Assembly: GCA_008632985.1 (NCBI GenBank)
Contig: QPGO01000027.1
Span: 310,001 to 374,000, forward strand
Reading direction: 5' to 3'
DNA length: 64,000 bases
Origin: Psammoneis japonica
Taxonomy: Eukaryota
The position numbers were made by a program, and so were the translations under genes. Below, piece by piece: positions 19,810-46,108 of the stretch (the stretch's first letter is position 1; every line of letters starts with the position of its first letter). Under the pieces are notes generated by a model. It had not been told where the DNA came from. It saw nothing but the letters and a program-made list of their open reading frames with translations, and did no database searches.

Positions 19810-20219
19810 TTTGTTACTTCTTGATTTTGTGAGAAATGTGGTTTTGCTTTGTGTGTTTTGCTTCTTGTGTTTCCGCAACCGATTGAGTCCTGCATCGACT
19901 CTGCCACGTTGGTGGTGACGTCACATGTTTCAGTCACGAGTGTTTCTCCTGCCGGGCATCATGCAGTCACCAATCCTGCGCGAGCAGCTTGGTGATGATT
20001 CTGAGCGGGCATTGGCCATTGGTTCTCGGAGGGACGGCATGCACGTCCGTGTCCGACCGCCCCCCAACCCAAGCCAGAAAACATCATGCAGACTGCAGAC
20101 GACACGATGTCCTCACTCATGGGCCTGGGTGGGCCCAGGGGCCTGGGCTTCCTGAGCATGGAGCACCATGATGACGGCGCAGAATCTGTTGTCCTTTTCA
20201 ACGAGGCTCACATCGAAAA

Positions 20220-23200
20220 AAGTTGGCTCTGCTGAGAATCTTGATGGCGTGCTCTGCCTCATCACTGGCCATCATCTTGCATCATTTTGATGCTGCTGGC
20301 GTGCACGTGTGCAGCAGCGCCACAGTCAACGCGAGGTTCGTCATGCAAAAAAGTCTCCACACTCGAGTGGAGTGCATTTTTTTCTCTGTAGAAATTTCCA
20401 CTGGCACTGTGTGGCTCTCTTTTGAGCTGTTTCATCAGACACTTCACTCAGACTTCACTTTGTCAAATTGTCATTTTTGTCAATGCACTGTGTTGTGCCA
20501 GTTTTTTTTGTTTCAGTTGGCTCTTTTTTGCTTCGTGGCCAGCAAACTTTGTGGCATTGCAGAGAACAAAGACGAGACAATCTCCTGGAGCAAAAAACAA
20601 GAATTTTGACATCCAGAATTTCTGCAAAGCTTGGGCCTGGCCAGCAGCAGTCATTTGGGAGCCACTGCACCAAGACTTGTGCAGCCCACTTTGCAAAAAC
20701 ACACTTGCACCCCACTTTGTGAAAAATGTCACTTGATTGCTCAAACGACATTTTGGCAAAATGCAGAAGTCTCAGCAGTTGTTCCAGAACAACTGCTGGT
20801 GCTCTGCCCAGACTTTCTGGAAATCCTGGAGATGATTCCATCTTCCAGCTCAGTTTTCCAAAGCTCGCGGCATGACCAGCAAAAAAGGAGAGTCGATGCG
20901 GTGCGGCACATTTTCAAAAACAACAATTTGTCAAGGTGAGGTCTGAGTCAAGTGCTGGGCAGCACCAATGGAAATTTTTGCAGAGAAAAAAAATGTGTGA
21001 AAGCAAAGCAAAAGCCAGCGAACAATGTGCAGCGGATGGCAAATCTGTGAAGGACCCAAGCTGGGCATCAAAAAAGAACATGTGCAGCTGTGTGACTCAT
21101 GCTGAACAACATGCAGAGGATTCATGAATTGATGGTCACACCACAAACATGCAATGAGAAATGGGAGCCTTTGGAATTTCTTGTGTTTTTGTGTGTGAGA
21201 TTTCAGCAGATGATGACAATGCACGCAAAGTTTCCTTTGACTGGATGACGGCGACTCTTGGACAGCAAGCGCGCCCTTGTTTTCCAACAAACAGAGGCAA
21301 TGTTCACTTCCCCATCATCATTGTCACCACTCTCCCAGTTGACCAAAACATTCACATGAAATGACACAAGCACCCAGTGCCGCCACACACAAAAACAAGA
21401 AGGACTTTGTGGGAGGGAAAATGAAACCTCCATTCTGGCATCATGTGTCTGCTGTGGAGCAGGTTTTGAAGAAAAAAAAGGTCATTTTGCAAACTGAGGC
21501 AATGCAAGAGTGGCCATTCAACAAGCCTTGGTGGCAAAGCTTGGTCACTGAGATGTTTTGAGTTGAGCATGCATCCTCAAAAATTTGCTGCTCTCCCTCT
21601 TGGATGTCAAACAATGACAAAGAGTCTGGTGCATCATTTTCCTGTTTTCATCATCCGATGATGACTCCTCCTCTGCAATGTCTTGAAGCTTGGTCCAGTC
21701 ATCTTTTTTGCTTTGAGTGCACTTCCTTGAAAATTTTTCCTTTTCTTTTTGCAAGAAGGTGATTCACATGCTCAGCTTGATCCGCTGCTTCAAGCATTTT
21801 TTCACTCTGTTGGAGAAGATGCAACAAGGTTGAGTCTTTTGTGTCATTTTTCTGGCAACTGCCCATGTGCTCATCATCTGGCAACTCTTCCATTGTGTCT
21901 TGTTGTTTCTTCCAGGCCATTGTTTTGAGACCTTGCAAAGATTGTCCCACATGTTGCTGCCAGGACAAAGCCTCCAAAAAAGCCTCCAAGATGACCCGCA
22001 TGGTTGCGACACTGTCATTGTTTTCACAATCAGAAGTTGCTTGAGCAAGAATGGTGTGCTCCTGATGCCCTTGATGATTCTGCATGCATTCATCACAAAG
22101 TTGATGACTTTGAGTCTCAGAGAATGATCTGCACAAAATGCGCTGACATGGAGACAGGTGTCCCATCAACACACCACACATTGCTGGGCCAGATCCAATG
22201 ACAGGTTTGATTGCCTCCACACAAGAAGTGCATGAAATGGTGAACCATGGACAAGAAGGATTGAAAAAACAACTCTCATTTCATGAGTGAGGAAACTTTT
22301 GGACAGCTGAGTCTTGCCAGAGGTTTTTCTCATGATCATTTCCACAAATTCTTTGTCAAATTGACTGCAAAGAAATTGACAAAACTGGGTGCAAAGATGG
22401 CAGACCCAAAATGCACCCAACAAAAAGCCGCTTCAAACTCCATTTTGCTTTCTGATTCAAAAACAATGGCCTTCCCAAGGCACACACTCCGATCATGTCA
22501 GGTGCAAGATGACCAAGATCTCTGTGCAAAAACATGGCCACCGTCAGGCACCCAAGATTGGTTTTCTGCTGAGTGTGATGCAGTCCATGCTTCTTGTGAA
22601 TTGGGCAGAAAAAGAAGCAAAGATTGGCAACAAAGGTTGCGCCAATCATTGTCATGGATGTGATCTTCCTCAACATCCCTTCAAACATCTGCTTTCCTCC
22701 CTTTTGCCACTTTTCACTGCTCCTCTGTTTGTCTTTGTGCCACAAAGCTTTTGGAGCTTTGTGGATCCGTGTCTTTTGAAAGACATGGTTGGAAATTTTT
22801 GTGCTGATGCAGAGAATCTTTTGTGACAGATTTGACTGTGTTGGTGGGAGAGATCAGTGGTGTGGGAACAAAATGTGGGTGCAGAAATGGCCTGGAACAA
22901 TGCAACTTTCAATGAGATCCAAGAAAGTGGCCAAGACAGTGCACAGGATGATGACTTGTTCAATCAACAGCATCCTGTCCCACTCTCTTGCTGTTGAGAG
23001 TTCAAGTGGCAGCCCATTTGAGTGGGCTGCTCAACACTTGTAAAGACAAGCAACAACTTGAAAAGCACAAATGAGTCTCCATGTGTTCACTCATTCTTTG
23101 CACACCACCATCCATGAGGCAGTGTCACCTGCTCCCATGCCCCCTGTTTGACAGCATGGAGAATGTGGTGTGCACACATCAGCCAAAGTGTCCGCGGTTT

Positions 23201-24600
23201 CACCAAATCACAGTCTGGCAGATTTTCCCACATGGTGTCGGAGATGCTTGCATTCTTTCACATTGAATGTGGCACCAGCAAGATTCTTGAACACAAACGT
23301 GCTCAAAGATTTCAGCCTCTTTTCTTTTTTGCTTCAGCAGCACAGCACTTTTTGATTTTGCAAACACTGGCAAAGCCTTGTTTTAACTTGGGGTGAGATC
23401 TGGAGCTTGTTGACCCAGTTGGCATTGCAGCGGTGGAGTCCAGAGGCATGTGCCATCCAGTGGGTGGCATTGGTGGTGGAGTCAGTGATGCGCCACATGC
23501 CAAAGACATTGTCAACAAACCAGCCATCATGGCAGGTGAGATTGGTGCCAAACTCCTCCAGAAGCATGGCTTTGTAGAGCGCACAGCAGAGAGTTGCTCA
23601 TGATGGTGTGGGCAGTGCACCCACAGCAGTGTTGTTGCATTGGAGCCAGGCAGTGTCTCCAAAACATCTTGAAGGCCTTTTTTGTTGGTGCTCTCTTGGC
23701 GGAGCAACATGCCTCAGTGTGTTGGACATGCAAAGAGGAGAGCCAGTTGGGCGGGTCTTTCATTTGGACCAGTTCTCACTTCTTGAGGTCCAGAGAGCTT
23801 TTGAAGTGTGAATTCTGGTTTTGTGCAACTTGGCGCAGCTTGCAATCTGCCCAGATGCCAAGCTGTGGAGCAGGCTGGATCACTTGCTGAAACAACTGGG
23901 GGAAAAGATCACAGCGGCAGGGGCTTGTGCTCAATGGGAGCTGTTCAGAGCTGCCCTTTTGCCAGAGGCAAAACTCTACAAATCTGCCCCCCTTGTTGTG
24001 CTTTGCACACCAGCTGTGCCCTGCGTGCACTGGCCACAAAGATGTGGCCTTTGCCAGATCATCTCATGAGAGGCGCACATTTTTTGCCAGCAAGCTGAAA
24101 TTTTTTGAGCCATGGTGCACACTGTGTTCTTGGCACTGTTTGAGAGGCTGCTTTTCTTCCAACAACCCAGAACACTTTGTCAGACAACAATTTTGTTGCT
24201 TGCCTTCAGAGACAGGCAACCAGCTTCTGAAAAGCGCTCTTTTTGCCTCCACTTGGTTGGGGGCTTGTTGTTTTTGTTTGTGTTGCGCTGATTGCTCTCA
24301 CACACAATTCGCAGATTTGAGAATTGAGAAGAGAGTGTGTCACTTTTCAGTGTTTCAGATTGGAGGCATTTTCTCCAGAAGGATGGCATTCTCATCTTTG
24401 CACCCGATTTCAGCCAGCCACTTCTGCCAGATGTTTTTTCGGAATGTTCCGAACGCTTCCAGCTTGGGCTCAAGACGGCGTGCGCCAGTCGACGAACTTT
24501 TGATACGACTGCGCCTGCGCCTCCGGCTGGTTGCGCTTCCCTCCACCCTCCACCCTGCAGCTGCAGCACCACAAAAGAAGAGACAAAAACACGGACCTTG
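20220..24600. mobile_element. Heavily mutated repeat block, possibly a DNA transposon relic (family not identified)
   Basis: About 4.4 kb almost devoid of TpA and mostly poor in CpG. Only broken C/H/Q-rich ORFs; no termini found. Confidence 0.5.
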
Positions 24601-24648
24601 AACAACCTTGAAAACTATCTCCCGTACATGAGAGCATTTGTTTCACCA

Positions 24649-26724
24649 ATGGCGTCGTTTAGAATCATCATTGGGGCGGTGCTAGTTTTATCCGCGTTTG
24701 GTGGCTCAGATAGGTTGCGCAGAAGCAACGGAGAGGTTGTGGAATCACCCCATAGTACCACGGCATATTCTTCTGCAGAAATTGCTGAACGTCGGTATCA
24801 CGCTTCGGGTGGACAACGGCGACACCTTCAAGGGTTCCAGTTTCCACGAGAGCCTGTTGACTATGATGAAAGCAATGATGATTTAAACCAATTCGAATCG
24901 GCTTCCTGACAGAGCCACTTGAAGACATACGAGGAACTAGCCCAGAGATTAACACCACCATTGACACTATATTGGAGGTGAGTTCTTCGAACAAGAAATC
25001 GAACGATGTTGAACTTATACGAATTGCTTCAACTATCTTTATATCGCGTTTCTCCGGCATCTTGATCAAACGCAGATTCTTCCTCTGGTTCAAGAGAGGT
25101 GGTCCCGGCATTTGTTTGTGAATCCATCGACCGGTGCAGTACCGGTTACCATGATGATTGCAGATTTGCCATAAATTATGACACTTTTTCACTTCCCGAG
25201 AGTGTAAACAATACGGATCTCTTGATTGGGGTCTTTCTTGACTTGGAGTCTGATGGCTGTACTGCAAGTTCCGTTGCTTTTGCAACAGCATGCACCTTGG
25301 ACCAACACGATCGGCCTATTTTTGGCATTATCAATTTCTGCAGATTATTAGATGACTCGAGAGAAAAGCGAATGGAAGCAACGCTTGTTGCTCTTCACGA
25401 GACAGCTCACGCGCTCGGCTATGATTCTCGCTTGTTCAAATATTTCAGAAACGCCACAACAGGTGAACCTTTGACGCCACGACCCTTTATGCAAAGCACC
25501 GTCCAATGCGTGGACAACACCACAAGATCAATGCTATTTCCAGCACAAAACACCTTGCGAGTGGGACAATCAAGCCTCGGTCTGCTTCACTATGAGCTTG
25601 TGACACCCCGCGTTCAAACGGTAGTCCGCAATCACTTTAACTGCCAAACCTTGGAGGGAGCGAGACTGGAAAACCAACCGACAAACCCTCTCGATTGCAC
25701 GGGATCGCATTGGGATGAACGTTTATTCTTGAATGAGCTCATGTCGCCCATTGTTGATTTAGGCGGCGAAGCAAAAGGCAACGTCCTTTCGCCGCTTACC
25801 CTTGCGCTGTTTGAGGACAGTGGCTGGTATAGAGTGTGGTATGGCGATTCTGAAAAACTCTCCTTTGGACAAGGACGAGGCTGTGACTTCGTCACTAAGG
25901 ATTGTATAGTTGACAACAAGATACCTGATTATGGAGCGGACGTGTTTTGTGACCATCCTTTAATCTTTAATGGAGAACTACCACGAGACTGGGACAACCC
26001 GGTCACCTGCAACCCCTCGCACACCAATTTGGCTTTCTGTGATTTGTTGGATCGCTCTACAGTACCCCCTCGTTACAACCTTGAGGGAATTCCAAGCTAC
26101 TTTGACAATTCAAACTTGGTGAGCCTGAATCAGCGAGCTGACTTTTGTCCGCTTCCACTTGAGAAACTGAGAAACGGCCAGTGTGACAGCGATGATACCC
26201 GTGACCGGTCTATATTCTTTCTTGAAGAAAATTATGGTCCAGGGAGCCGTTGTGTCAATGCAATACTCGATAGATCTCTCATTGCACCAAACGGAACATC
26301 AGTTCCTGGACCGCATCGACGAGGAGCCTGTGTTCAGCTCGTTTGTGACCATGAAAACTTTCGAGTTGTAGTGGCTGGAAAAGTTTGTGAATTTGATGGG
26401 CAGACGATTCAGGCGTCGCAAGGTCGTGGTTCCTTGATATGCCCTCCACTTGCAACAGTATGCCCAGACATGTTCTGTCCAGGTAGCTGTTCAGGTCGAG
26501 GTGTCTGTAACTACGACGTCGTTCCTCCTTCGTGTGAATGCTTTGACACGGCAGACGTCTCGCCATCCTGCAGCAAACCAACAACGGGTCCATCATTTCC
26601 TCCCAACGTATCACCTTCTCCCACTGCAGCGCCTCAAGCCAACTTGGGAAGCTCTATGGCATCAAGAAGGAGTTCCACGCTTGGTGTTATCGCAATGCTT
26701 TGGGTCATGGTTGCGGGTATGTGA
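24649..26724 (+). CDS. Leishmanolysin-like (peptidase M8 / GP63) zinc metalloprotease, probably GPI-anchored
   Basis: Signal peptide; HETAHALG zinc motif, GSHWDER, NELMSP, LSPLTLALFEDSGWY, RADFCP; EGF-like module and hydrophobic C-terminus. The 5' part has an intron (~24978-25075) and frameshifts. Confidence 0.92.
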
Positions 26725-30514: not shown

Positions 30515-30539
30515 TGCACCCCGTACATAGCTGAGCCCT

Positions 30540-30940: not shown

Positions 30941-33471
30941 TTTTGAATTTGGATGCTGTCCTTCTCCCGAATTTTCAAATGCACACACATCCAAAAAACA
31001 GTTTGCGGGGAATGCAATGCCATGACATGCCAAACCTGGTCATCACCAACATCAACAATGCCATGTTCAGAATGTAGATTCAGAAACATTGGGATCCTGA
31101 ACGGACAGAAATCCAATTCTGTGCAGCAGGAAGAGGTGCAGTTTCTTCCAGTCAATTTTTTTGCCGGATCCAAGATTTCAGTGTGAGAGAGATAAGAATC
31201 ATGGCTGGCATTGTTGTTTTGACTTTTGTTGTGTTGATTGGGGGTTTCCTTTGGCCATTGTTTGATGAGGTCAGAAAGCATGTGAATGCATTTTGGAACA
31301 ATGCTTTGAGATGACCAAAAAGCCACAGGAGAAACATTTGAAGTGGAGAAAGCTTCTGCCATTTCTTCTGCACTGTGCTGTGATGACACAGCACTGAACG
31401 GGGCCAGGATGAGGAATGTCCTTCTAACCACCACCCTTGCAAAGCTTTGCTCTGCAGTCAATGCAGTGCAGTCCACAAGGACACTGCTGCTCATTTTTGA
31501 CTTGTTCCAGACTTAGGTGGCGCGCACATGCCCCTTTTCGCAGAAAAAAAATTTTTTATGCTTTATACAACATCGTACATATTTCATCATTTTGATCATA
31601 TTTTAATTGCTTATAAGTAAAATAAACAGAATAAACTCGAACAAACAAACAGCCAAACCGGCCATGGCTTTCAGTGACCATGACGGCCCACTTTTTTCAG
31701 CCTTATGGAAAATTTAATGTCATGACGAGGACCTCCGTATTTGATATAGTCTATGGCATCAACAACAATAGTGAAAATGCTTGTTACAGGTTGCAGCGCG
31801 GCACAATAACACTGAATCTGTCAGCAACAACAATTGAGCCTCAATTCACTCACAATTTGCCTCTAAGGACCATTTCTTTGCCATTACCATGTATACTTCC
31901 TCAATATATTCGACGGATTCAAGTGTCTCAATTGTTTATGCCTCTTAAACAGTGAAAAATGGTCCGAAGTCGACGCCATTGCGTGGGCTGAGCTACCCTT
32001 CTTCTCACGTCGTCCGAAACTTATTAATCAACGTATGTTTTATTCGATCCGTTGAATCAAAGTTGTATTCGCGCATTGTAACCAAAGATTAATTATGTTA
32101 TGTTAGAGGGTTAATTTATATATAAGAATAATATTTTATACGTTTCTACACACATTTAGACATCTATAAATCGCTCCTCGGAAAACAGAGCTCTCAACTT
32201 GCGGTACAATTTAGGGACTAATAACTGAGTCCATCGACAGTTTCGAATACATGGGTACACGCACAAGACCTTTCTGTATGTACCCATAACAACACATTTG
32301 AAAATTGTTATGTTTTTACTATCGAAAATGGTGCCGCAAGTGTGGACCGCGCGTTTCATGCGAAAAGGGTCATTTTTTCGCGCGTGAGGGCACCTAAGTC
32401 TGGAACAAGTCTTTTGCAAGAGCCAGAGATTCAGCAATGGGGCCTCATGTGGGTGCCTCAGTGACAGCCAGCCTGTGAGCCTGAAGGACTTGTTTTGGAC
32501 ACAGAGGCTGCAACAGCCACAGCAGTCTGTTGAGCCTGCATGTCAAGCCATTGTCAGGATCAAGTGCAAGCTGCACTGCCTTGTGCACCAACAGCCAGCG
32601 TCATGGGCTCCTCTCTTCAACTTAAACAGGAGCACACCACTTTGCAGTGCAGCCAGCAAAAAAAACACAAGGAAAAAGCTCTGTTGGGTCATCAGCCAAA
32701 GTTCCTAGAGATTGTGATTGCAAGAGGGCCGAGACTCAAACACTTGGCCACATGGGTGAAGCATGGCTCCAACTTTGTTTGGGCAGCAGCAGATTTGAAC
32801 AAGACAAGCTGACATTGAGAGGAGGCAGTGACAGTCCAAAGATTTCACAATGAAACAAAGTCAACAGCACCAGTGTTGCATGGCAGAATCTGAGCTCTGC
32901 TCTGCAAGCAGAGTGAGACAGAAGCCACAGACATGATGGGGTGCATGGCTCATGGTTGTGATGAGCCCACCAGAAGCATCATGATGCACGGTTTGTTTTT
33001 GGGTTGTTCTGAGATTGCCGCAAAAGCAGAAACTTGCTCACATGTGCACATTCATTGTGCACCTCCTGTCTGCATCTGAGTGGGAGCCATCTTGGCCTTG
33101 GTTGCATGACAACAGATGCTGGCCTCTTTCAAACATTTTTGAGGTCTTCTTTCTGGCAACACACGCTGGTGTTTGTCCAACCTTGAGGACTTTGCTCATG
33201 AGATTTTGCAGCCAGCCTAGATGCTCTGCCATCACATTCAAGAATTTGAGGGGAAGTTGAATTTGAAGATGTGTTTGGGTTGATGGCTGTGCACATGGGC
33301 TTGTGTGTGTGCGCACTGCCAAGGATGCAGAGCCCAGGTCCAAACACTCTTTTTTTTTTCAGGAAAGCTGCCACAAGCACATGGCACATGACAACAGAAC
33401 TTTGTCAGCATTGTTCCAGTGCTGTCATCAACAGGATGCCCCCAGCTCAAGTGTTTTGAGGATGGAGTGCC
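30940..33471. repeat. Old TpA/CpG-depleted repeat hosting the MITE and the Gypsy; continues at 43426-~43990
   Basis: Composition. The Gypsy TSD tgcc joins 33471 to 43426. A weak minus-strand CPFRI...W.V...H motif might be Mutator-related. Confidence 0.55.
31499..32411. mobile_element. MITE with perfect 21-bp TIRs
   Basis: gacttgttccagacttaggtg (31499-31519) / cacctaagtctggaacaagtc (32391-32411). Flanked by tttt on both sides (probable TSD). AT-rich and TpA-rich interior. Confidence 0.88.
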
Positions 33472-33997
33472 TGCAGCATGCCTCGCCACTGGACAACACG
33501 GCGAGACCGTGCACAAGCCTCTTGTGCGTGGCAACGCAGTGTTGTCAACACGCACCTGGGAAGCACGACCACAGGAGGGCGTGGCTCTGGGTCTCAGGCA
33601 ATTCCAGAAGGATGCCAAGAGAGCATCCGTGTGAAGCACACTGGCCCGTCGTCTGGCCCACGATGGCAGCGTGATTCCACATGATGACATCACTCGTGCA
33701 TGGCGCGTGATGGCTTGATTCGCACGATCCACAATGCGAACGCACGATCGACCCAATGCGATCCAAATGCAAACGAATGGGGATTTGGCAAGATTCCCTG
33801 TTTGCACGATCCCATTTTCTCCACTCTAAACTAGCTCACAATTTTCACAACGACAAAGTCGCAACACATCTTCTTTTTCAGTGCCTGGCACATGCACAGG
33901 GCACAGCAATGTCACTCCCGCACATTGTGCGAGGTGATGAAATCTGCAGAAACGAAACTACGAAATGTTGGTGGGACCGACAAATCTTAAAACGACA

Positions 33998-34428
33998 ATG
34001 AAGAAGCGGATTGAGCCGCCGATTCCGTTCGCACGGCCGGAGAAGAAAGAGCTGCAGCAGGGCGAGCACCAGATGTTCAAGCTGCGTAACAACCCCACTG
34101 ATCCGGATGGTCCAACACACGAGATGGGCATTCCCCACCTTTCTGCGGCTGCATGCGAGACACTCCCAATCTTTCTGCGCAACGTGGATCGCGTGCACGA
34201 AGGACAAAACATCACGACCGGGCCAGCGAAATTTGCCCTCATGCGTGACCCACTGCAGGGCAATGCTCTGATGTCATTTGACAATGCCGCTGACAAGCAG
34301 GCATCCCAAGCCAACGCTGCGCATGCAGCATGCGTCGTGAAGCTAAAGGAAAGCATCTTCCCACATGGGGCAGTGCTGCTGCAGAAGCGTTGTCTGAGGC
34401 GCTTCATGCGCAAGCCCGCAGAGGCTTC
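33998..34428 (+). pseudogene. 5' part of gag of the outer Gypsy
   Basis: MKKRIEPPIPFARPEK...QKRCLRRFMRKPAEAS joins in frame to 39162 (ARDCVARAVEING..QFPP) once the inner element and one TSD are removed. Confidence 0.85.
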
Positions 34429-37400
34429 TGCAGTGTGCGACTGTTGTGTGCACATTTGTGATTACACATTGTTTGTGTGTCAATCGCACCACAGTCGTGG
34501 ATGCGCACAAAGGACAGAACGATCACACAGAGTTGATCGGATGTCGAGAATTGCAAATACGATCGATTGACGATGTTGACATCTTGCGTGTCAATGGCAA
34601 TCGCATCCGGACAATCTGTTGTCACGAACATGTTCTCCGAAAGGCCTTTTGTCTGTAGAAGCAGCACAGAAGCTTTAGGCCATTGAGAACTCATTCGGAG
34701 AAACCAAAAATCACAGAGTAAAATCTAATCTCATAATTTCCACTTTTCGTACACTGTTCTACTTTCGTTTACACTCGTTCTTCGAGCACAGTGCATTGTG
34801 CACACACACCACAGAAGGTAAAAAGCACGGAAAATGAAGATTTTAACTAATGTGCCTTTGTAAATTCTTCTACAAACAGGAACGAATCGCATCAGTTCTG
34901 CTGGAATCGATTTCCGAGCGGAAGAAGCTCAAGCCGAGCAGCACCTCAAGATGGAACGCTGTTTTTCGTCTACCAGACAAGAGGATTCGCTCTGGTGCGG
35001 TCTGTTCCAAGCACCCAAGGATCAAGGGCTCTCAAGCACACCGCATTATCAAAAAAATCTACACCAAGTCATGGTTGCAGAGAATGCAAGTTCCGAGTCG
35101 ATCAGATCCGAGAAATGCGTCTACCATGCAAGGAGAGACTGTTGGAGAGTTTTTTGAGACCGAATCGATGATCCTCGAGTCCAAGGAGCAAGATGGAACC
35201 GTTGAAAAGCACCTCAAGAGTCTCGTGTCTCATGTCTTTCCAAGAATTGCACTTCAGAATCAGAGTTGTCATTTTCAAGACGACCTGAAGAAACCAGAGC
35301 TGCTTGACAGCAAGAAAGCCTCTGTTAGACCCAAGAGGTCAATGATGAGAGTCTGTGCGACCCTCAGATGGATTCTAAGTCGAATCTAGCGGGAAACCGA
35401 GCACTGATTTGTCAGCTGTCACTCGCACCGCAAGGATGGCAGCACCAGTCTACTGTCCAAAACAATCAACTGTTGCAACTCATCCTTGATGAGCTGATTA
35501 AGTTTTGAGTCATCTGTGGGTCGTTCATGACGTCCGTGACGAAAAAACACATCAACTCAGGCTCTGACAGCGCAGTTGGTTCCAAAATAAAAAAGGTTCC
35601 AAATTTGGTTCCAAAAATGGTCTCCCACATGGCACCAGAACAATCCAAAGTGAATGCAAGGTCTCATCTTTGAAAAAAGAATACCCACATCACGGATTGA
35701 AGCCATTCTAAAAATGAACTGGCAAAAGAGTGCAAGGGTGACTCTGAAAGAGACCCAAAAATGCGCCGTTCAAATGGCAATCGCACGCGGTCGCGTCGCG
35801 ACAACGAAAATGCCGCTCGCAAAAAAAGAGATGAACGTCATGATTGATCAGGCGGTTCAAAAAATGCTCAAAGCGAGTTCCTTGAACAAAGAAAAAGAGC
35901 ACAAGGGCAAAGAATCAGATTCTGATGCCCTCAGTGAAGAAAAGTGCCAATTTGATCGGATGATCCAGACTGAATCCGAAGAATGATTTTGGTCTGTTCA
36001 CGAATTGCATGCTTTACTGGACATCAGGAAGCCTAGAAAAAAGGCAGAAATAATTCACACTGGTCCAGGAGTCATCATTTATGTGAACACTTCCTTGGGA
36101 AAGGAGAAAAAAAAAAAGCATCTGCGTGTTCCTATCGACAACGGAACATCGTCAACCACAATTTTGCGCAAATTCGTGCGAAAGTTGAGAACACAAGAAT
36201 CCGCCACCAAAAACTTGGGAAACCAAGGGTGAGCTCTTTACGACTGGTGGTAAACACCGAATTCAGTTCTCACCATGCGAAATTTAAGGCATGCTGACAT
36301 GCAAACAGCATGTGTTGAAAACACCAAATTTTCTTCAGGTTCAAATGATGTGATCATGGGACGCGACTTAATGTCCAGTCCTGCAAGTCATGTTGGACTA
36401 CGCAAATGAAGAAATCTAATGGGAAGAAGCAATTGCCTTATGAAGAATGTTCGTGCACTCTTCGATGCCGATGTTTTCAAGCTGAAAACCGATCACATTG
36501 AAAAATGTGACGCCGTGAATAGAGTCAACAACGGAACCAATGGTCCTCAACTCACATTGTCACGCCATCGATCTTAATCAAGTGACAACTACGGTGATGC
36601 ATCTAACCCAAATGAACACAACCAACTCAATCTTCTTCTTAAGAGGTTGAAATCGTTTTGAAAAGTTCCTCAGACGAATGCATGGGAAGCATCAGTGGAT
36701 CTCATCGTGGAAAATCTGACGCGATTCCACAACGCGTGAGAACCTTCTCCTATCATAGTCTTTGGAGGCGTCCAATCAAAAGGAGTTTGACCTGTTATGA
36801 AAGATTGAAGTCTCAAGAATGAAATTGCTCTGAACAAGTCGCTCTGAGACTCATTGTCTAAAGAAAACAGGTCGAGTTCGACCGCATCCGACACTCAGAA
36901 GCTTAGCACAAGGTTCATACAGGTGGCGCATCCTTTACCCAATATTCAGGAAATACTGTTGAAGCAAGAACGTTTCATACATGCAATCTATTTGATTCAA
37001 ACATGGAATGCCACCATGTCAAATAAAAAAAGCACACGTTGTGCTCACACAAAAATCATGCCGTGGGGAGAAAATGAGTACTATGGACTTCCAATGAGAA
37101 TCTATAGAGCCCCAGATAATTTTATACAACACTTGAGTGAACTCACAACAGGTTTGAAGTTGTCAGAACGACCACATGTGATCGTTTGTGCCTGACAAAA
37201 GTAACTTCAAAATATCACCTGCACAAGTAACAGCTTAATGCGGCATTCAAACGACTAGAACAGTCGCTTAGAAGGTTAACAACAAAAGTCCTTCACTATT
37301 TAACTTGAAATAAACTATCAAGACTTCCATACGTAACGACATGCAATCGATTACAAAGAAAATGGAGGCGATTCAAGCAATCGCAACACGAGAAAAACGT

Positions 37401-39157
37401 AAAGAACACTACGACATCTCGTTGTCATACGTTACTATTATCGAGACATGTAGTCTCAACGATCTCCTGTACAATACTAGCCAAATTCACCTCAATAAAG
37501 GTCAAACGGCAAAAGTACAAGTACGGAACGAAAAGTCTCCGAAAATATGGAGCGTATCAAATCAAAAACTATGTTGTTATCATACACGTATTTCAATATT
37601 ATACGTTACAACGGAAAAAAGAACTTCTGTCCATAGTGAAAACACTTATAAAATTCCGAAATATACTGTTTGGCCAACAGATTTATACATATACGGATCA
37701 TAAGACACAACGGACAAAGTCATACGTTGACAACTTCAGTCCCGAATTAGAATACAACGAGGGCAAGGCGAACATCGTCGCGATAGACGCGATCAGCCGA
37801 CTTACTATAGAAAATTGAATCCTACGACAATGTCCTACCGTTAAAACGGGATAAAGACATTCCCTCCAAATTGTCGGACGCGACATATCATACGAACACT
37901 TTTCGTGGAGGCGAGCGAGATCGAAAAATGCTCATGTCACAAGGATAAAATCGCCTTTTTAAAGGACGATTTAGGAAAAAACAGTGACAGATTGGTGCAC
38001 ATTATACGCATCCACTTCACACTGGCAAAAGACAATCTCACAACACCCGTACGGTTGTATTGTACAATGTACGAGGCAAGACATTAAAACACACATCATG
38101 TCGACACACGAGATGTGCCAAAGATCTAGAAAAAGAAAAGAAAAATGGACATTTGTCCACTTGGTGCACGAAACCAATGCCTTCGGAATGACAAAATGAC
38201 ACCGGCATGTCAGAAAGAAACGTCCAAATGACGATTAAAATCCAACTGACAGATGGTTGAAGTGCAAAAAAAAAAATCCACAATGGAATTCACAACCATC
38301 ACAGGATTGATCATCAAGACGAAATGGTCACAATGTCTTTGACCATCGTTTGTTGTTGCTTGTGAAACGTGGCAGTGCAGCAGAGCAACATGGCGTGTAA
38401 AGTGAGCCTGCCAAACTGCATGAAATCCACAAGCAAGCAAGTGAACGCCACAATTGAGAGTGCACATCAAGCACTGGGCACGATGCCATGCACAATCGAC
38501 ATCAGGAAAAACACTTGCTCCAGGACAATTGGTCCTTGTGTTCACATCAACAAGAACGTCAATGAGAATGCTCGACGCAATGCCACGTGCACACATGTTA
38601 AGTGAGAAACAAACAATGTCACTCTCAAAAGACATTCGGAAATTGGAACGGCCCCACATGGCCTGTACAAAACGACAACAGTCATTGCCAATGGCACAAT
38701 GCAGTGAACGTGGAGACATTGTTGGCACTGTCAACATCCGTCGAACAATCCACTTAACAAATGACTCTAATGTGCAGTTGGGGAGGCGAATGCAGTGCGC
38801 GACTGTTGTGTGCATGTTTGTGATTGCACGTCATTTGTGTGTCAATCGCACCACAGTCGTGGATGCGTGCAAAGGACAGAACGATCACACAGAGTTGATC
38901 GGATGTCGAGAATTGCAAACACGATCGATTGACGATGTTGACATCTTGCGTGTCAATGGCAATCGCATCCGGACAATCTGTTGTCACGAATGTGTTCTCC
39001 GAAAGGCCTTTTGTCTGTGGAAGCAGTGCAGAAGCTTTGGGCCATTGAGAACTCATTCGGAGAAACCAAAAATCACAGAGCAAAATCTAATCTCATAATT
39101 TCCACTTTTCGCACACCATTCTACTTTCGTTTACACTCGTTCTTCGAGCATGGTGCA
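34429..39157 (+). mobile_element. Nested, internally degenerate Ty3/Gypsy element (inner element)
   Basis: 367-bp LTRs 34429-34795 and 38791-39157. TSD cttc at 34425-34428 and 39158-39161. PPT ggggaggcgaa. Broken protease (PIDNGTSST), RT (HPLPNIQEILLK, MPWGENEYYGLPM) and RNase H (YTDHK, GKANIV..DAISRL). Confidence 0.93.
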
Positions 39158-39159
39158 CT

Positions 39160-42100
39160 TCTGCTCGTGACTGCGTCGCGAGGGCTGTTGAAATTAATGG
39201 CTGTGTCTCTCAGTTTCCACCCGTGACGGAGGATGGAGAAGCACCGGCACCATTGCCTGGCGACGAACCATGTGATGTGTTCGAGTGCGGTGTGCCGAAC
39301 GCATGGCAGAAGTTCATGACGCTACAGAATTTTGACCCGTTGGCGCATGCTGTCGCCGAATTTGTGCAGTTCTGCGAGCGCACCGAGCAGGTCGAGCTCA
39401 CCGAAGGTAACCGCGACCAACATGCCAGGGTCCCACGCAAGCGGGGACGTAGAACGGACAATCATGAGTCGTTGATCACGACCCAACCGAACACCCATGT
39501 GAAACGTGTCAAAACTGGACATTCCAGTAACGGAGGCAGCAAGCCTAATATAAAACCTCGGAATGAGGAAGACATCAACACACTCATCGGATCGAAGGTC
39601 GAGGAGTTCTTTGCCAACGCTCAGAAAAAGCGCAAGGCACGCGAGGAGGAGCTCAATCACTTCCGCGACCTCAACTTAAGTGATTCCGAAGACTCGGACA
39701 CTTGCCGACACGACACAGGTAGTTTTAATACATTAGATGAATGTATTAATGAACAATTGAATTACCATCGTACACGTGTTGTAAGCCAATCCCGCAAACG
39801 AGTTAAAAAGACTCATCTTACTCCAATCTTGTTTATAGCTATGAACACTAAACATGGCAAGGGCAAGACTCAAACTATTAAGGCACTACTAGATAGTGGC
39901 GCCAGCAGTGCTCTACTCGACAGTCGATACTGTAAACGTCTGCGAAGCCATTCAACGGCTGAGACAAACTGGACTACGGTAGCAGGCTCGTTCAGTACGT
40001 CTAACGACTGTACCGTTAAATTTTGGTTACCAGAATTATACGAAACTGCAGAACTTAAACATACCGTCCACGTACACAACGGAAAGTTGGGCAAGTACGA
40101 TATGATTATTGGACGTGACATTCTGGAGACACAAGGCATTGATATTGTCTTCTCTAAACAGATGATAGAGTGGCCATTAGTCAATGGAGAAGTACCAATG
40201 AGGCACGTAGATGCTACGGTAGAAACCTCCTTCTATCTTCAAGATCCAGAAGCCTTATCTTCGGAAACCAACCGGATTTCGCGTATTTTAGACGCTAAGT
40301 ACGCGCCGGCCTGCCTCGAGGACATAACGAGAGAGGCAATAGAACTTTCTATAGTTCAACAAAACGACCTTTTGGCACTATTGAAACGCCATGAGTCCTT
40401 ATTTGATGGGACATTAGGAGAATGGAAGGGAGAACCCTACCATATCCAACTCAAGGAGGGTGTAGAACCACACCACGCTCGTCCGTATAAAGTACCTCGT
40501 GCGTACGAAGTTACGCTACGTAAAGAAGTAGAACGCCTAGCACGCATCGGTGTTCTCAAACGCGTTAACCGATCCCAATGGGCAGCTCCATCATTTATCA
40601 TACCGAAGAAAGATTTAACGGTACGCTTTATTAATGATTTCAGAGAGCTGAATAAACGGATCAAGCGATTGCCTTGTCCGATTCCTCACATCCAAGATGT
40701 GCCACTCAAGCTCGAAGGCTTTGTGTGGGCTGCATCGCTGGATTTAAACATGGGCTGTCATCACATCCGATTGGATGCTGATGGCAAGAAGCTCTGCACG
40801 CTCATCTTCCCGTGGGGCAAGTGTGAGATGCAGGCATTGCCCATGGGATTGTGCAACTCGCCAGACATTTTCCAAGAACGCATGTCAGGCTTGTTTGAAG
40901 ATCTGTCGTTCGTTCGAACGTGCTTGGATGACCTTCTCGTCGTGACGAAAGGCACCTGTGAAGATCACCTCAACAAACTTGAAGAAGTCTTGTTGAGGGT
41001 CCAGAAAGCAGGGCTAAAAGTTGATGCAACTAAATCTCATTTCTGTCAAACCCAATTAGAGTGCTTGGGCCATCTGGTTGACAGAGACGGAGTGCGACCA
41101 ACACCTGACAAAGTCGACGCCATTGAGCGAATCGTGGCCCCAACCAATGAACGCGACCTCCGCTCATTCATTGGCATGGTGAGCCACTGCCACGACACGT
41201 GGATCAGACGTTCTGAAGTCTTGGCTCCGCTGACACGACTCACAAGCGAGACTGTCAAGTGGGAGTGGACGTCCGTTGAAGATGAGGCATTCGAAACCGT
41301 CAAACGGGTGATGTCGGATGATGTTTCATTGTCACATCCTGATTTTAACAAACCCTTTGAGATGCATGCCGATGCCTCTAAACATCAATTGGGAGCAGCT
41401 GCATCCCAAGACAACAAACCTGTCGCCTTTTGCAGCAGAAAGCTCAACAGTGCGCAATTAAATTGTGCAGCAACGGAGAGAGAATCACCCGCCATTGTGG
41501 AGACGTTGAAAGAATTTCGAACCACTCTCCTTGGTCATCGTGCAATTGTGCACACTGATCATAAAAATCTCACGCACAAAGCATTCAATGCCGAGCGCGT
41601 CATGCGCTGGCGGTTGACATGCGAAGAATGCGGTCCCGAATTATGCTGTGTCAAGGGTGCCCACAACCCAGTCGCTGACGCTCTTAGTCGCCTTCGGCTG
41701 GCACCCAGCTTGCCTTCCCAGGCCAATCCAGATGTGAAAGACACTCCATCGAGTCGTCCTTTACATGAAGCCTTTAATGCAGACGCTCAAGATGAGCCAT
41801 CTCTGCCTGTTGGCTTCAAGCGCATTCAAAAAGCACAACAAAAGGACAAGCGCCTGCTCTCACGAGCTGAGGACTCGTCCGACTGCTCCATTCGCGCATG
41901 TCGTGGGGGAGGGTCATCACGACAGTTGGTCTGTCATAAAGACAAAATTGCAGTGCCACAGTCATTGCAGGTTCCGCCAACTGAATGGCACCATGAGACA
42001 CTGTGTCATCCAGGTGAGACACGTACGGAAATGTCCATTGCCCAGCACTTCTGTTGGCCTGGCATGAGGTCTAAGGTGCACTCTACATGCGTTGAGTGCG

Positions 42101-42954
42101 ATCAATGCCAGAAGACAAAACGCCGAACGCAGCGCTGTGGGAAGCCACCAGAAAAGGTCGCAGAGACAATTCCATGGGAGACTCTGTGCATGGGTGTGAC
42201 AGGGCCATGTAAAATTCAAAGACGCGGAAAGGACACCTTGCAATTGTGGGCAGTCACAATGATTGACCCAGCAACCGGGTGGTTCGAGATTAAAGAAGTG
42301 TCCACGAAACGCGCAGACGTCGCAGCAAACGTCGTGGAACAAACTTGGCTGTGCAGACATCCATGGCCAACCCAGGTGGTTCATGACCGTGGGACAGAAT
42401 TTATGGCAGAATTTGGCCAGATGATTAAAAATGACTGTGGGATTTTGAAGAAACCCATGAGGAAACGGAATCCACAGGCGAATGCCACAGTGGAACGTGT
42501 GCACCAGACACTTGGTGACATGGTGCGTTCCTTTTCAGTGCAGGGTGTGGAACTGGACAAAGATGACCCATGGAGTGGCGTCCTCTCCACAGTGGCCTTC
42601 GCCATTGGAGCTGCGGCACATGCGACCACGCGTGCAAGTCCCATGCAATTGGTCTTCGGACGCGATGCGGTTTTGTCTGTTGCCCATCGTGCCAAGTGGA
42701 AGCACATAGAAACCAGAAAGCAGAAGCTTGTCCACTCAAACAACAAGCGTGAAAATCAGAAACGCAAGGAGCATCAATGTGCCGCAGGGCAATTGGCACT
42801 CATCAAACAGGAACAATCCTCTAAATGCGGTTCTGACAGCTGTGCAGGACCCGCCAGAGTTGTCCGCATGTGTGACAACGGCACGTTGCGCATCCAGAAC
42901 GGAGCGCTGACAGACACGCACAATCTGCGGCAGGTTGCACCCTGTCACCAGTGA
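39160..42954 (+). pseudogene. gag (3' part)-pol ORF of the outer Gypsy; open but with catalytic motifs mutated
   Basis: Protease LLDSGAS; RT LPMGL and CLDD (for YLDD); RNase H ADAS, TDHKNL, VADALSR; integrase HHCC, DRGTEF, VERVHQT. Confidence 0.95.
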
Positions 42955-44223
42955 GACATTCTGTCACTTGACGGCCCTGATCAAGGGGGAGTGTGCAGCA
43001 TGCCTCGCCACTGGACAACACGGCGAGACCGTGCATGAGCCTCTTGTGCATGGCAACGTAGCATTGTTGACATGCACCTGGGAAGCACGACCACAGGAGG
43101 GCGTGGCTCTGGGTCTCAGGCAATTCCAGAAGGATGCTAAGAGAGCATCCGTGTGAAGCACACTGGCCCGTCGTCTGGCCCACGATGGCAGCGTGATTCC
43201 ACACGATGACATCACTTGTGCATGGCGCGTGATGGCTTGATTTGCACGATCCACAATGCGAACGCACGATCGATTCAATGCGATCCAAATGCGAACGAAT
43301 GGGGATTTGGCAAGATTCCCTGTTCGCACGATCCCATTTTCTCTGCTCTAAACCAGCTCATAATTTTCACAACGACAAAGTCGTAACACATCTTCTTTTT
43401 CAGTGCCCAGCACATGCACAGGGCATGCCACATGCAAGACAAAACATGCACACATCTCTGCAGTGGACACCAGCGGTTGACACGTTGTTGGCAATTGACG
43501 AGCTGCAGGGTGCAACATGCCACATCACTGCAATCTGACATGTGCCAACTGTTGCTGCAACATGCAAAAAAAATTCTTAGAGTTGTGCAAAAAAAGTTTG
43601 GTCATTTTAATGTGCGAGTGCTTGTTTTGGTGTTGACATTTTTGCGCCGACTTTTTGACAAAAGCCAAGTTTGGCGCGCTGGTGTCTCCCCCCCACCCCA
43701 CCCCTTTGCCACATTGTTGGTGCTTCTCTAGCAGTTTCTGCTGTGGTGTGAGATGGCTGAGTGCTCATCTTTGTCGCCATTGCTTTTGTGATTGAAGTTT
43801 CTCATGCAGGGAGATTTTGCCCTTTGAATGGCTTCAGACAAAATGTTCGGAGAATGAAAAGAAAAAGATGTGGCACTTGGGCCACCCCAAAGCAGACTTG
43901 CTGCATTTGTTTTTTTTCAAAGCCATGTTACACTCTGGACCTGTCCATGGTTGTGGTTTGAAATGAAAGGACACTCAGGCGTGACCACGCTTTACACAGG
44001 CAGCAGATCTCAAGAGTCAGTCGTGCAATTTTTGGGTAATGGGCCTCCTCGATGTTGTTGACCGTTTTTGGTGGTGTTTGTATTCTTGGACAAGACTGCT
44101 CGAGGGAATAATAAAGCAAAAAAGTGAGCGTGTGTTTGCCCTCATGAGAGGGCGTTGTCGTTTCCGTTGGTTGGTGGTTTCCTTGCATACCCTGGTCGGG
44201 TCACAAAGCACGCTACTAATACT

Positions 44224-46083: not shown

Positions 46084-46108
46084 TGTACGCTGTACACCAC
46101 TGAGTCAT

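Follow-up and report, generated by a model that had tools for sequence, protein, structure and literature searches.

Hypermutation of mobile or foreign sequences is known from several systems. RIP of ascomycete fungi requires duplicated sequence; C:G becomes T:A, chiefly at CpA, which raises TpA, lowers GC, and creates stop codons. APOBEC3 and ADAR work before integration, on cDNA or RNA, and leave their changes on one strand. For A:T>G:C hypermutation directed at TpA in foreign DNA there is one earlier description, a 2026 preprint on a chlorarachniophyte (bioRxiv 10.64898/2026.01.13.699255). According to the available part of that preprint, mutation-accumulation lines of Bigelowiella natans gave 231 mutations in two viral insertions, of which 230 were A>G or T>C. 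The GC-biased mutations are all placed on TpA in its text, and "almost exclusively" in the legend of its Figure 2; LTR, retrotransposon, and CpG are not mentioned in the available text (bioRxiv 10.64898/2026.01.13.699255). Diatom transposons are known to be CpG-methylated (PMC9998398, available part of the text).

The window, i.e. the whole 64-kb stretch of DNA analysed here, contains nested LTR retrotransposons with the same TpA to TpG/CpA signature as in B. natans. The most probable reading (a probability of about 0.8) is a post-integration host process on chromosomal DNA, which changes A:T to G:C specifically at 5'-TpA-3'.

Structure of the nested retrotransposons

The outer (host) element is the middle Ty3/gypsy element of the window, and has the following features:

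33472..33903, + strand: 5' LTR of the host element; target-site duplication TGCC at 33468-33471
39091..42954, + strand: open pol frame of the host element, with RVT_1, RNase H, and integrase
42994..43425, + strand: 3' LTR of the host element; target-site duplication TGCC at 43426-43429

The Pfam domains of the host pol follow the order RVT_1, RT_RNaseH, Integrase_H2C2, and rve. Excision of the inner element together with one copy of its target-site duplication joins 39091..42954 to 33904-34428, and gives a gag-pol ORF of 1426 aa. This frame is open, yet Tyr>Cys/His changes are saturated from 40471 onward. The features of the inner element are:

34425..34428, with a second copy at 39158-39161, no strand: target-site duplication CTTC, 4 bp
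34429..34795, + strand: inner 5' LTR, 367 bp, TG..CA ends; the less mutated copy
34796..38790, + strand: internal region; gypsy-like gag-pol, degenerate (44-53 stops in each frame)
~36854-37597, + strand: similarity to RT (24-50% identity, a range that includes RNase H)
~37615-37845, + strand: similarity to RNase H (24-50% identity, a range that includes RT)
38791..39157, + strand: inner 3' LTR, 367 bp, TG..CA ends; the more mutated copy

Within the inner element, a TA-rich island (36900-38100) lies between TA-depleted tracts. At a few conserved columns of this island, the change is in the direction of a TA codon (C>Y at 37103, W>stop TAG at 37451); these columns are weak evidence either way, because the inner family is only ~29% identical to its homologs. 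Outside the inner LTRs, three transversions separate 34426-34428 from 38788-38790, where flank is compared with polypurine tract.

Differences between the LTR pairs

The inner LTRs can be aligned without gaps. They differ at 15 sites comprising 22 bases, with equal numbers of A/G and C/T differences (11 each) and no transversions. The changed steps are CA/TG (5), TG/CA (2), TA/TG (3), TA/CA (3), CA/CG (1), and TG/CG (1); the unchanged steps are CA/CA (32), TG/TG (29), CG/CG (20), and TA/TA (4). All 22 differing bases fall in columns with a pyrimidine-purine (YR) step in both LTRs. Such columns make up 54.5% of the LTR, and the chance of 22/22 differences there is ~1.6e-6. The remaining 289 columns of the inner LTR, all AA steps included, showed no difference. 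The original prediction of about 15 differing sites, all pyrimidine-purine, was therefore borne out. Its six examples of TA against TG or CA were all found (34464, 34558, 34657, 34677, 34719, and 34750). Most other sites were expected to be reciprocal CA versus TG, and seven are; the last two have CG against TG or CA, and are better read as ordinary CpG decay.

Seventeen TA sites are visible in the inner pair. Seven are converted in the 5' LTR, and 13 in the 3' LTR (8 to TG, 5 to CA). This corresponds to a relative rate of 20 hits in 34 TA site-copies (0.59), versus 0 in the 289 other columns. The host LTR pair has 24 differences at 18 sites; all are transitions, 22 of the 24 lie in YR steps, and CG is involved at 7 of the 18 sites. 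An older repeat pair (29068-30935 and 44638-46506; 1.9 kb, 80% identical) has an ordinary spectrum of 161 transitions and 144 transversions, so the YR pattern is not a general property of repeats in the window.

TA-depleted tracts and context preference

Nine tracts, with a TA o/e of 0.03-0.2, occupy ~23 kb of the 64-kb window. They cover the nested retrotransposons and unannotatable blocks, and three of them cross element borders. The main tracts and islands, none of which has a strand, are:

1-4150 and 12551-16600: TA-depleted blocks similar to 19651..24650
19651..24650: older block, TA o/e 0.03, CpG o/e 0.33
32400..34700: TA-depleted tract, starts in the upstream flank, covers the host 5' LTR and gag, and reaches into the inner 5' LTR (border-crossing)
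34901..36350: TA-depleted tract, 5' half of the inner element
38101..39650: TA-depleted tract, from the inner element through its 3' LTR into the host gag (border-crossing)
39700..40700: TA-rich island within the host element, unmutated (7.9 TA per 100 bp, GC 0.44)
40701..44100: TA-depleted tract, host RT, RNase H, integrase, 3' LTR, and ~0.7 kb of downstream flank (border-crossing)

The last tract has its first hits at 40471, and is saturated by ~40700. The host island shows the composition before mutation. Between the island (39700-40699) and the tract (40700-42993), TA falls from 7.9 to 0.96 per 100 bp, and CA+TG rises from 11.7 to 19.35; CpG does not rise (5.7 to 5.19), and GC goes from 0.439 to 0.52. 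The loss of 6.9 TA per 100 bp is matched by a gain of 7.7 in CA+TG. Over 64 one-kb windows, the correlation between TA and CA+TG is -0.89. Three host genes are spared, with TA of 2.7-3.4 and CpG of 5.1-6.6 per 100 bp. The old blocks have a CpG o/e of 0.14-0.5, and no Pfam family was found in 16 ORFs from TA-depleted blocks. The families are highly repeated (10889 contigs at >=80%); the 1.9-kb pair is unmutated, and TA-rich islands persist inside repeated elements.

A context hierarchy is visible in two data sets. Among the residual TAs of the tracts, TTAA and CTAA are enriched 3.9x and 3.4x, and ATAT is depleted to 0.08x; T is the 3' neighbour of 9 of 146 residual tract TAs, versus 484 of 1677 elsewhere. 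In the LTRs, both copies have lost TA at ATAT, TTAT, GTAC, ATAT, GTAC, CTAT, and ATAG, and both have kept it at CTAA, ATAA, CTAC, and TTAC.

Direction of the changes

The host pol has 25 Tyr (TAY) columns that are conserved in at least 80% of 60 outgroup homologs. The conserved Tyr is kept in 3/3 columns at 40096-40438, and lost in 22/22 at 40471-42943, with 14 changes to Cys and 8 to His (TAY to TGY/CAY). The homologs have Cys or His in 16 of 1482 such cells, with a maximum of two per protein (Fisher 8e-36 versus the host element). No His/Cys to Tyr change was seen at the conserved host pol columns. From 40451 onward, the single-step codon changes of the host pol comprise TA>TG (25, plus 2 ambiguous), TA>CA (16), CG>CA (5), CG>TG (1), 8 other transitions, and 11 transversions. 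Polarised by the 60 outgroups, A>G or T>C at TA accounts for 41-43 of the 68 changes; 14 more codon changes in the whole host ORF are multi-step. The 11 transversions may be lineage differences, the family being 51-61% identical to its homologs. Both strands are hit in an interleaved manner (read on the + strand, A>G 27 times and T>C 16 times; 22 runs versus 21.1 expected).

For the inner LTR, the polarity from TA to TG/CA is supported indirectly by a CG-ancestor test, a third copy, and the family depth, in addition to the host element. With a CG ancestor, 7/7 hits in the 3' LTR must coincide with hits in the 5' LTR among 29 CpGs, with 20 CpGs untouched (p = 2.3e-5). With a TA ancestor, no hotspots are required (p = 0.088). 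Contigs from runs X2 and X3 contain a third LTR copy; it covers 9 of the variable sites, and 8 of these read TA. Family copies have TA at 8-77% of depth at nine variable 3'-LTR sites among the differences listed. About 13 TG/CA sites common to both LTRs are TA in the third copy, versus 4 reciprocal sites over the same span. The source copy was therefore probably mutated already, and passed some of its load on to this insertion.

The original prediction had taken TA as the older state and TG/CA as derived, which the outgroup test of the host element and the three inner-LTR lines support. Its further claim, that the changes came from a DNA process after insertion and not from RNA editing or RT error, agrees with the presence of both A>G and T>C in each LTR and with the tracts that cross element borders.

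Proposed mechanism

These comparisons establish the signature, its direction, the post-integration timing, the organisation in tracts, and the fact that both strands are used. The two LTRs of one element are identical at insertion; hence, every LTR difference arose after insertion. Since TpA reads the same on both strands, top-strand hits would give TpG and bottom-strand hits CpA. After one hit the site would no longer be TpA on either strand, so that CA/TG would be the end state. The LTRs would differ only at YR steps because TpA hits yield these end states, and at the reciprocal CA versus TG sites, the two copies would have been hit independently, on opposite strands. Conversion of TpA to TpG/CpA would also explain why TA falls and CA+TG rises with flat CpG. 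The process is proposed to act in saturating tracts of ~1-5 kb with fairly sharp edges, ignoring element borders and sparing host genes. In the open frames here, proteins would be damaged by Tyr>Cys/His, Ile>Thr/Val/Met, and Leu>Ser/Pro changes with almost no stops, and long frames would stay open.

A second, slower process strips CpG from the same silenced DNA. It would most simply be deamination of methylated CpG, also ending in TG/CA, and covers 2/15 inner LTR sites, 7/18 host LTR sites, and the CpG loss of the old blocks. The enzyme acting on TpA is probably a DNA adenine deaminase. The most likely route, also proposed for B. natans, would be a TadA/ADAT2-like DNA deaminase that is recruited to silenced foreign DNA and turns adenine into hypoxanthine; the purpose would be genome defence. 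An unlikely extension is a diatom RIP-like defence with the opposite chemistry. A chromatin- or small-RNA-directed DNA adenine deaminase would erase TpA (TAT/TAC preferred, TAA spared) in 1-5 kb tracts over silenced retrotransposons; CpG would be changed to TpG/CpA by the same dual A/C deaminase, acting on both palindromic YR steps, and not by passive methylcytosine decay.

Alternative explanations

RIP-like or CpG-decay cytosine deamination would start from an LTR ancestor with CG at the reciprocal sites and CA/TG elsewhere, and C>T changes on either strand would lead from CG to TG/CA and then to TA. This single process covers 15/15 inner LTR sites in 22 steps, equal to the TpA model plus CpG decay. 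Six codon changes in the host tract are CG>TG/CA, one LTR copy is very rich in TA, the old blocks have indeed lost CpG (o/e 0.14-0.5), and diatoms have RID-related DNMT4 genes (PMC9998398, available part). However, 22/22 conserved Tyr codons changed from TAY to TGY/CAY with 0 in reverse, and GC rose from 0.44 to 0.52 in the tract. TA is depleted to an o/e of 0.03-0.2, whereas RIP enriches TA. The required hotspots are left without explanation (p = 2.3e-5), with 20 CpGs untouched in both LTRs. As the source of the pattern, cytosine deamination is already largely refuted by the Tyr test, and is extremely improbable. A different alternative keeps the chromosomal TpA process, and replaces the deaminase by repeated error-prone repair synthesis in heterochromatin, with a Pol-eta-like polymerase misinserting G opposite T at WA. 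Pol eta is responsible for A>G changes at WA, especially TA, in immunoglobulin hypermutation, and the tract-like distribution fits patch repair. The specificity observed is for TA only, however. The other 289 inner columns, all AA steps included, have 0 differences, the host tract has 8 other transitions versus 41-43 TA hits, and the loss of conserved Tyr is saturated at 100%. Such repair synthesis is quite improbable as the source of the changes.

Editing before integration might be ADAR-like A>I on the element RNA, or a deaminase or error-prone RT acting on the cDNA; the LTRs would then be unequal at insertion. ADAR prefers a 5' U, and minus-strand DNA deamination between strong-stop synthesis and completion can make LTRs unequal. 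The ~13 shared TG/CA sites that are TA in the third copy also indicate that part of the load was probably inherited. On the other hand, the host pol (27 A>G, 16 T>C; 22 runs versus 21.1) and each LTR contain both A>G and T>C in interleaved order, which does not fit the editing of sense RNA in one direction only. The LTRs differ at 15 (inner) and 18 (host) sites, with both directions within each, in contrast to the one strand and identical LTRs expected of such editing. The tracts also continue over LTR borders into the host element and flanking DNA, and T is the preferred 3' neighbour, with G not favoured, whereas ADAR favours a 3' G. In B. natans, the available part of the preprint describes the same signature arising de novo in chromosomal, transcriptionally silent DNA (bioRxiv 10.64898/2026.01.13.699255). 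There is hardly any probability left for pre-integration editing. A technical artefact might arise if a modified base at TpA/CpG in silenced DNA were misread and the consensus picked TG or CA. Opposite-strand misreads of a modified site would give exactly CA versus TG; the best run contains only 0.51 of the sampled words, and the letter of the window is absent from the contigs at a few places (e.g. 39784 and 41470, among the differences listed). However, an artefact would leave ~0.3 of the words by the author's own estimate, versus the 0.51 observed, and 2086 of 10889 contigs are at least 99% alike to the window. The contigs differ from the window mainly by the same four transitions (833 versus 78 transversions), so the variation is present in read-derived words; this read support consists of contigs from one sample, possibly the source of the assembly, and is partial, with 40 of 917 differences listed. 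A 60-nt X3 contig is identical to the host 3' LTR tract at 43140-43199, and TA-rich islands (7-8 TA per 100 bp) adjoin tracts within the same elements. Moreover, the biology has been documented in another alga by mutation accumulation with Illumina sequencing (bioRxiv 10.64898/2026.01.13.699255, available part). An artefact is thus very improbable.

Significance

The saturated signature in diatom LTR retrotransposons suggests that TpA-directed hypermutation is widespread in SAR lineages, on transposons and viral insertions. LTR pairs provide a built-in clock and an internal control. Because LTR differences are all post-insertion, any assembled genome is enough to measure how fast the process runs, which context it prefers, and how long its tracts are; mutation-accumulation lines are not needed. 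TA-free tracts lack TAA and TAG stops, and therefore give long false ORFs. Homology is masked by the Tyr>Cys/His changes, and LTR-divergence ages would be many-fold too high unless YR steps are masked. If the dual A/C deaminase defence were true, the system would be common to stramenopiles and rhizarians, and so old within the SAR group; the long open but dead frames would be miscalled as genes by gene finders.

Comparison with known systems

Like fungal RIP, the process here is post-integration and chromosomal, makes transitions at one dinucleotide on both strands, disables transposons without deletion, and can reach into flanks. The changes run the other way: they destroy TpA and raise GC, frames stay open, and Tyr codons are lost, not gained. 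RIP also needs duplication; the families hit here are highly repeated, yet the 1.9-kb duplicated pair is untouched. As with APOBEC3 (G>A) and ADAR (A>G), retroelements are hypermutated by transitions of the deaminase type, next to a fixed base. In contrast to both, the LTRs diverged after integration, the two strands were hit at random, and flanks outside the elements were included. With 5-methylcytosine CpG decay it shares CG>TG/CA changes at 2/15 inner and 7/18 host LTR sites, and an old-block CpG o/e of 0.14-0.5. However, CpG decay leaves unexplained the TA loss, the Tyr>Cys/His changes, and the 20 CpGs untouched in both inner LTRs.

The closest system is that of B. natans, as described in the available part of the preprint (Mettrop et al., 2026). 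Both systems show only A:T>G:C at TpA, giving TpG or CpA by strand, and in both the changes are restricted to foreign blocks of nuclear DNA. Long-term TpA depletion with a matching CpA+TpG gain, clustered in 1-kb windows, is also common to both. The depleted genes of B. natans are enriched in RT and DDE domains, and many of its depleted regions are unannotatable, as here. The host here is a diatom by gene similarity, not a rhizarian, and the targets are LTR retrotransposons dated by their LTR pairs, whereas those in B. natans are viral insertions. The LTR pairs give a relative rate only; the rate in B. natans was measured in mutation-accumulation lines. The depletion is far deeper here (o/e 0.03-0.2, 22/22 Tyr lost) than in the viral region of B. 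natans (Rho 0.45). Compared with B. natans, the present locus also shows CpG loss alongside TpA loss, tract edges resolved to tens of bases, and a wider context preference, in which TAT is favoured and TAA is spared.

Retrotransposon nest and neighbouring genes

The window contains a nest of LTR retrotransposons amid ordinary, intron-poor host genes. The best named relatives of the IGPS-PRAI fusion gene are diatoms only, with 60-70% identity (Ditylum, Nitzschia, Cylindrotheca, Skeletonema, Fragilaria, and Bacillariaceae genomes), and the host was accordingly treated as a diatom.

Main features of the window
5298-7040: IGPS-PRAI fusion gene
25066-26724: leishmanolysin gene
33472-33903 and 42994-43425: LTRs of the Ty3/gypsy host element, target duplication TGCC
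34429-39157: inner element, with 367-bp LTRs, TG..CA ends, and the 4-bp target duplication CTTC
46511-49163: GH3 glycosidase gene
53904-57124: Utp13/WD40 gene

The inner element is inserted within the gag region of the host element. When the inner element and one CTTC copy were excised in silico, a 1426-aa gag-pol frame of the host element was regained. Self-comparison of the window found no copies of either LTR besides the two pairs, and a search pattern for the LTR core, degenerate at every pyrimidine-purine (YR) step, gave 0 matches in metagenomes. Read-derived contigs were taken from three sequencing runs (X1, X2, and X3) of one sample, from which the assembly itself may derive; of the sampled words, the best run contains 0.51. 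Positions at which no listed contig has the letter of the window were left out of the evidence. A total of 10889 X1 contigs aligned to 33400-43500 at an identity of at least 80%, which shows that the genome carries many copies of both retrotransposon families. Diverged, tandem-like direct repeats were also observed at the right end of the window (62924-63450 and 63147-63738, 68-74% identity, units of about 70-280 bp).

Differences between the paired LTRs

The original prediction held that the inner LTRs differ at about 15 sites, all of them pyrimidine-purine dinucleotides. Gap-free alignment confirmed this: the 22 differing bases, at 15 sites, are without exception transitions and fall within YR steps, which make up 54.5% of the LTR columns (p ~1.6e-6 for all differences to fall there by chance). 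Six sites have TA in the 5' LTR and TG or CA in the 3' LTR; seven are reciprocal CA/TG; two have CG in the 3' LTR and TG or CA in the 5' LTR. Every sequence example quoted in the prediction was found, and most of the differences without TA are indeed reciprocal (7 sites, against 2 involving CG). Counted as hits, 20 fell on 34 TA site-copies (0.59 per site) and 2 on 44 CpG site-copies, with 0 differences across the remaining 289 columns. Judged by ordinary mutation, the lack of differences outside YR steps indicates a very young insertion.

The host LTR pair has 24 differences, all of them transitions, with 22 in YR steps; five sites are reciprocal, five are TA versus CA, and seven are CG versus TG/CA. 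The sole non-YR difference is an adjacent CC versus TT at 33752-33753, where all eight aligned contigs read TT, plus G at 33755. The older 1.9-kb direct repeats flanking the nest (29068-30935 and 44638-46506) differ by 161 transitions and 144 transversions. This ordinary spectrum shows that the restricted spectrum is specific to the two LTR elements. The 1.9-kb repeats are 80.5% identical and have normal TA, being duplicated yet without hypermutation; they could represent a segmental duplication or, alternatively, the LTRs of a larger and much older element.

TA-depleted tracts and TA-rich islands

The LTR differences are a small part of a wider pattern of TA depletion. In the dinucleotide profile, about 23 kb of the 64 kb lie in tracts with TpA at 0.03-0.2 of expectation and CA+TG at 1.6-1.7.

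TA-depleted tracts and TA-rich islands
1-4150: TA-depleted tract, older block
12551-16600: TA-depleted tract, older block
19651-24650: TA-depleted tract, older block
27051-27800: TA-depleted tract, older block
30851-31550: TA-depleted tract, older block
32400-34700: TA-depleted tract
34901-36350: TA-depleted tract
36900-38100: TA-rich island, inner element
38101-39650: TA-depleted tract
39700-40700: TA-rich island, host element
40701-44100: TA-depleted tract

Depletion extends over the whole nest (32400-44100), interrupted by two islands, each of about 1 kb, and by a small patch at 34700-34900. Both islands have 7-8 TA per 100 bp and a GC content of 0.39-0.44 inside otherwise saturated elements, and they cover different protein domains in the two elements. 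The host genes retain 2.7-3.4 TA per 100 bp. The tracts cross the LTR borders uninterrupted, from element to element and into the flanks. A reverse process, from CA/TG to CG and TA, was considered for the inner island (37001-38000; CpG o/e 1.40, TpA 0.82); it was rejected because the composition of this island matches that of the unmutated host-element island.

The older blocks contain 11-26 TA per 4-5 kb, have a CpG o/e of 0.3-0.6, and include many long ORFs. No Pfam family was found in 20 ORFs, of which 16 came from TA-depleted blocks and four lie largely outside them (12436-12954, 24328-24909, 16633-17592, and 19202-19741). When the 331-aa ORF at 13398-14390 was used as query in a full HMMER search, a single match was obtained, weak and repetitive (E 4.8e-16, 11 stretches). 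A repeat family is common to 2122-2845 and 13340-14097 (78.6% identity, inverted). Within a TA-free block, 14381-15725 aligned in the self-comparison with its reverse complement (66% identity, about 1 kb); the CA/TG-rich composition could have caused this, or the stretch may be an inverted repeat that has degraded.

Direction of change

A reciprocal CA/TG site can be derived from TA or from CG. The LTR pair alone thus has no polarity, and outgroups were used. The 60 best homologues of the host pol, found in other genomes and metagenomes (51-61% identical), were aligned with it, and 25 columns with Tyr in at least 80% of the homologues were scored as conserved. The three conserved Tyr at 40096-40438 are still Tyr; all 22 at 40471-42943 are replaced, 14 by Cys and 8 by His (TAY to TGY or CAY). 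When the homologues were scored likewise one by one, Cys or His occurred in 16 of 1482 cells, with a maximum of two per protein (Fisher 8e-36). No conserved His or Cys was replaced by Tyr in the host pol relative to the 60 homologues. From 40451 on, the single-step codon changes comprise 25 TA>TG (plus 2 ambiguous), 16 TA>CA, 5 CG>CA, 1 CG>TG, 8 other transitions, and 11 transversions; the whole host ORF has 14 more multi-step changes.

The edge of the host-element tract lies between 40438, the last Tyr kept, and 40471, the first Tyr lost, and saturation is reached by about 40700. From island to tract, TA per 100 bp declines from 7.9 to 0.96 and CA+TG rises from 11.7 to 19.35; CpG is nearly flat (5.7 to 5.19), and GC increases from 0.439 to 0.52. 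This is the balance expected with one TG or CA for each TA lost. The host pol (39091-42954) remains a 1287-aa open frame that a gene finder would call intact; with 22 of 25 conserved Tyr replaced, it is protein-dead. Its rve integrase domain scores below the Pfam cut-off (22.1 versus 32.6 bits). The inner coding region is a weak test, since its homologues are 24-30% identical and alignable only in the TA-rich island; conserved Tyr was kept in 7 of 12 columns, with one Tyr to His.

The two possible ancestors were also compared within the inner LTRs. With CG as ancestor, 20 of 29 CpGs are intact in both LTRs, and all seven 3'-LTR hits must fall among the nine sites hit in the 5' LTR (p = 2.3e-5). 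With TA as ancestor, 17 TA sites are visible, and the overlap between the 7 and 13 hits on them agrees with expectation (p = 0.088). A third copy of the inner LTR was found in X2 and X3 contigs (38757-39054). It differs from the 3' LTR at 24-26 places, having TA where the window has TG, CA, or CG, and all of the differences listed are G>A or C>T. The unmutated LTR was therefore very TA-rich. The third copy has TA at eight of the nine covered LTR-variable sites. Given the direction established in the host pol, it is a little-mutated copy. That this TA-saturated contig might be a product of repeat-induced point mutation (RIP), as in fungi, was considered and dropped, as a near-ancestral copy is the simpler reading. 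Among the sites listed, TA states account for 8-77% of the family depth at nine variable 3'-LTR sites. About 13 sites with TG/CA in both inner LTRs have TA in the third copy, whereas that span contains 4 reciprocal sites; the source copy was probably partly mutated before transposing, and some of the load was probably inherited.

Sequence context of TA loss

The residual TAs of the tracts are enriched in TTAA (3.9x), CTAA (3.4x), and TTAG (2.2x), and depleted in ATAT (0.08x), GTAT (0.11x), and ATAG (0.11x). T is the 3' neighbour of 9 of 146 residual TAs, versus 484 of 1677 elsewhere. In the inner LTRs, the sites lost from both copies are ATAT, TTAT, GTAC, ATAT, GTAC, CTAT, and ATAG; those retained by both are CTAA, ATAA, CTAC, and TTAC. 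This order of loss fits the context rule seen independently in the tracts. TA before T and TA after A vanish earliest; TTAA, CTAA, and TTAG survive longest. The order suggests a target preference of 5'-TAT > TAC > TAG > TAA.

Timing and possible mechanism

The conversion of TpA to TpG or CpA is chromosomal and post-integration, affects both strands, and proceeds in tracts to saturation. Because a single template gives rise to both LTRs, which are identical at integration, the differences within a pair post-date insertion. RNA editing or reverse-transcription error is argued against as their source, because A>G and T>C occur together inside each LTR and the tracts disregard element borders. In the host pol, 27 A>G and 16 T>C are also randomly interleaved (22 runs versus 21.1 expected), and this runs analysis found no processivity or strand clustering of hits. 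The post-insertion DNA process proposed in the original prediction is supported. It is unlikely that modified bases produced an artefact: 2086 contigs are alike to 99% or more, the read-derived contigs are dominated by those same transitions, and TA-rich islands adjoin the tracts. By place, the X1 contigs aligned to 33400-43500 differ by 833 transitions and 78 transversions. A polymerase that makes errors at WA motifs is a weaker explanation, as TA alone is hit and the hits reach 100%.

Adenine is probably deaminated enzymatically to hypoxanthine, which pairs with C. The likely actor is a DNA-acting deaminase of the TadA/ADAT2 kind, aimed at silenced foreign DNA. In nature, TadA/ADAT2 act on A34 of tRNAs, a base invariably preceded by U33, so a DNA-acting relative would be expected to prefer 5'-TA. 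Because TpA is palindromic, a single hit on either strand removes the site on both, and CA/TG is the end state. The tracts show no enrichment of CpG, which means that a second hit, from CA to CG, is rare. Stop codons are almost never created in these open frames; only CGA>TGA, from the CpG side, could do so. This near-absence of new stops accounts for the open but heavily mutated pol frame and for the many long ORFs without Pfam families in the TA-free blocks.

CG versus TG/CA is seen at 2 of the 15 sites of the inner pair and at 7 of the 18 sites of the older host pair, and the old blocks have lost most of their CpG (o/e 0.14-0.5) along with nearly all TA. The simplest reading is that ordinary decay of methylated CpG in silenced repeats proceeds more slowly beside the TpA process; alternatively, one enzyme may produce both changes.

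Comparison with known systems

RIP enriches TpA; the tracts of the window are depleted in TpA, which is the opposite. A paper on diatom DNA methyltransferases notes that RID, the RIP enzyme of fungi, has a relative in DNMT4 of diatoms (PMC9998398). A full-text literature search for the TpA>TpG/CpA signature found only a 2026 preprint on Bigelowiella natans, and none for diatoms. In the mutation-accumulation lines of B. natans, 231 of 302 nuclear mutations fell within two integrated viral regions, at rates about 1000x background (10.64898/2026.01.13.699255). A>G and T>C accounted for 230 of them; according to the Results text all A>G/T>C mutations were at TpA, and according to the Figure 2 legend "almost exclusively". 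The genome also has 124 clusters of windows with TpA depletion and CpA+TpG enrichment, the depleted genes are enriched in RT and DDE domains, and an ADAT2-like deaminase was proposed (10.64898/2026.01.13.699255).

The present case shows all the sequence-level features by which the preprint text describes the phenomenon. However, the host here is a stramenopile, whereas B. natans is a rhizarian. The targets are LTR retrotransposons, in which events are dated by paired LTRs; the process has reached saturation; tract edges and islands are resolved; and a context hierarchy is seen. The text of the preprint is silent on LTRs, retrotransposons, CpG, diatoms, and wider sequence context (10.64898/2026.01.13.699255). 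The phenomenon was recently described, and the P. japonica nest adds a second, independent case in which selfish DNA has undergone TpA-directed hypermutation; both the lineage and the class of target are new.
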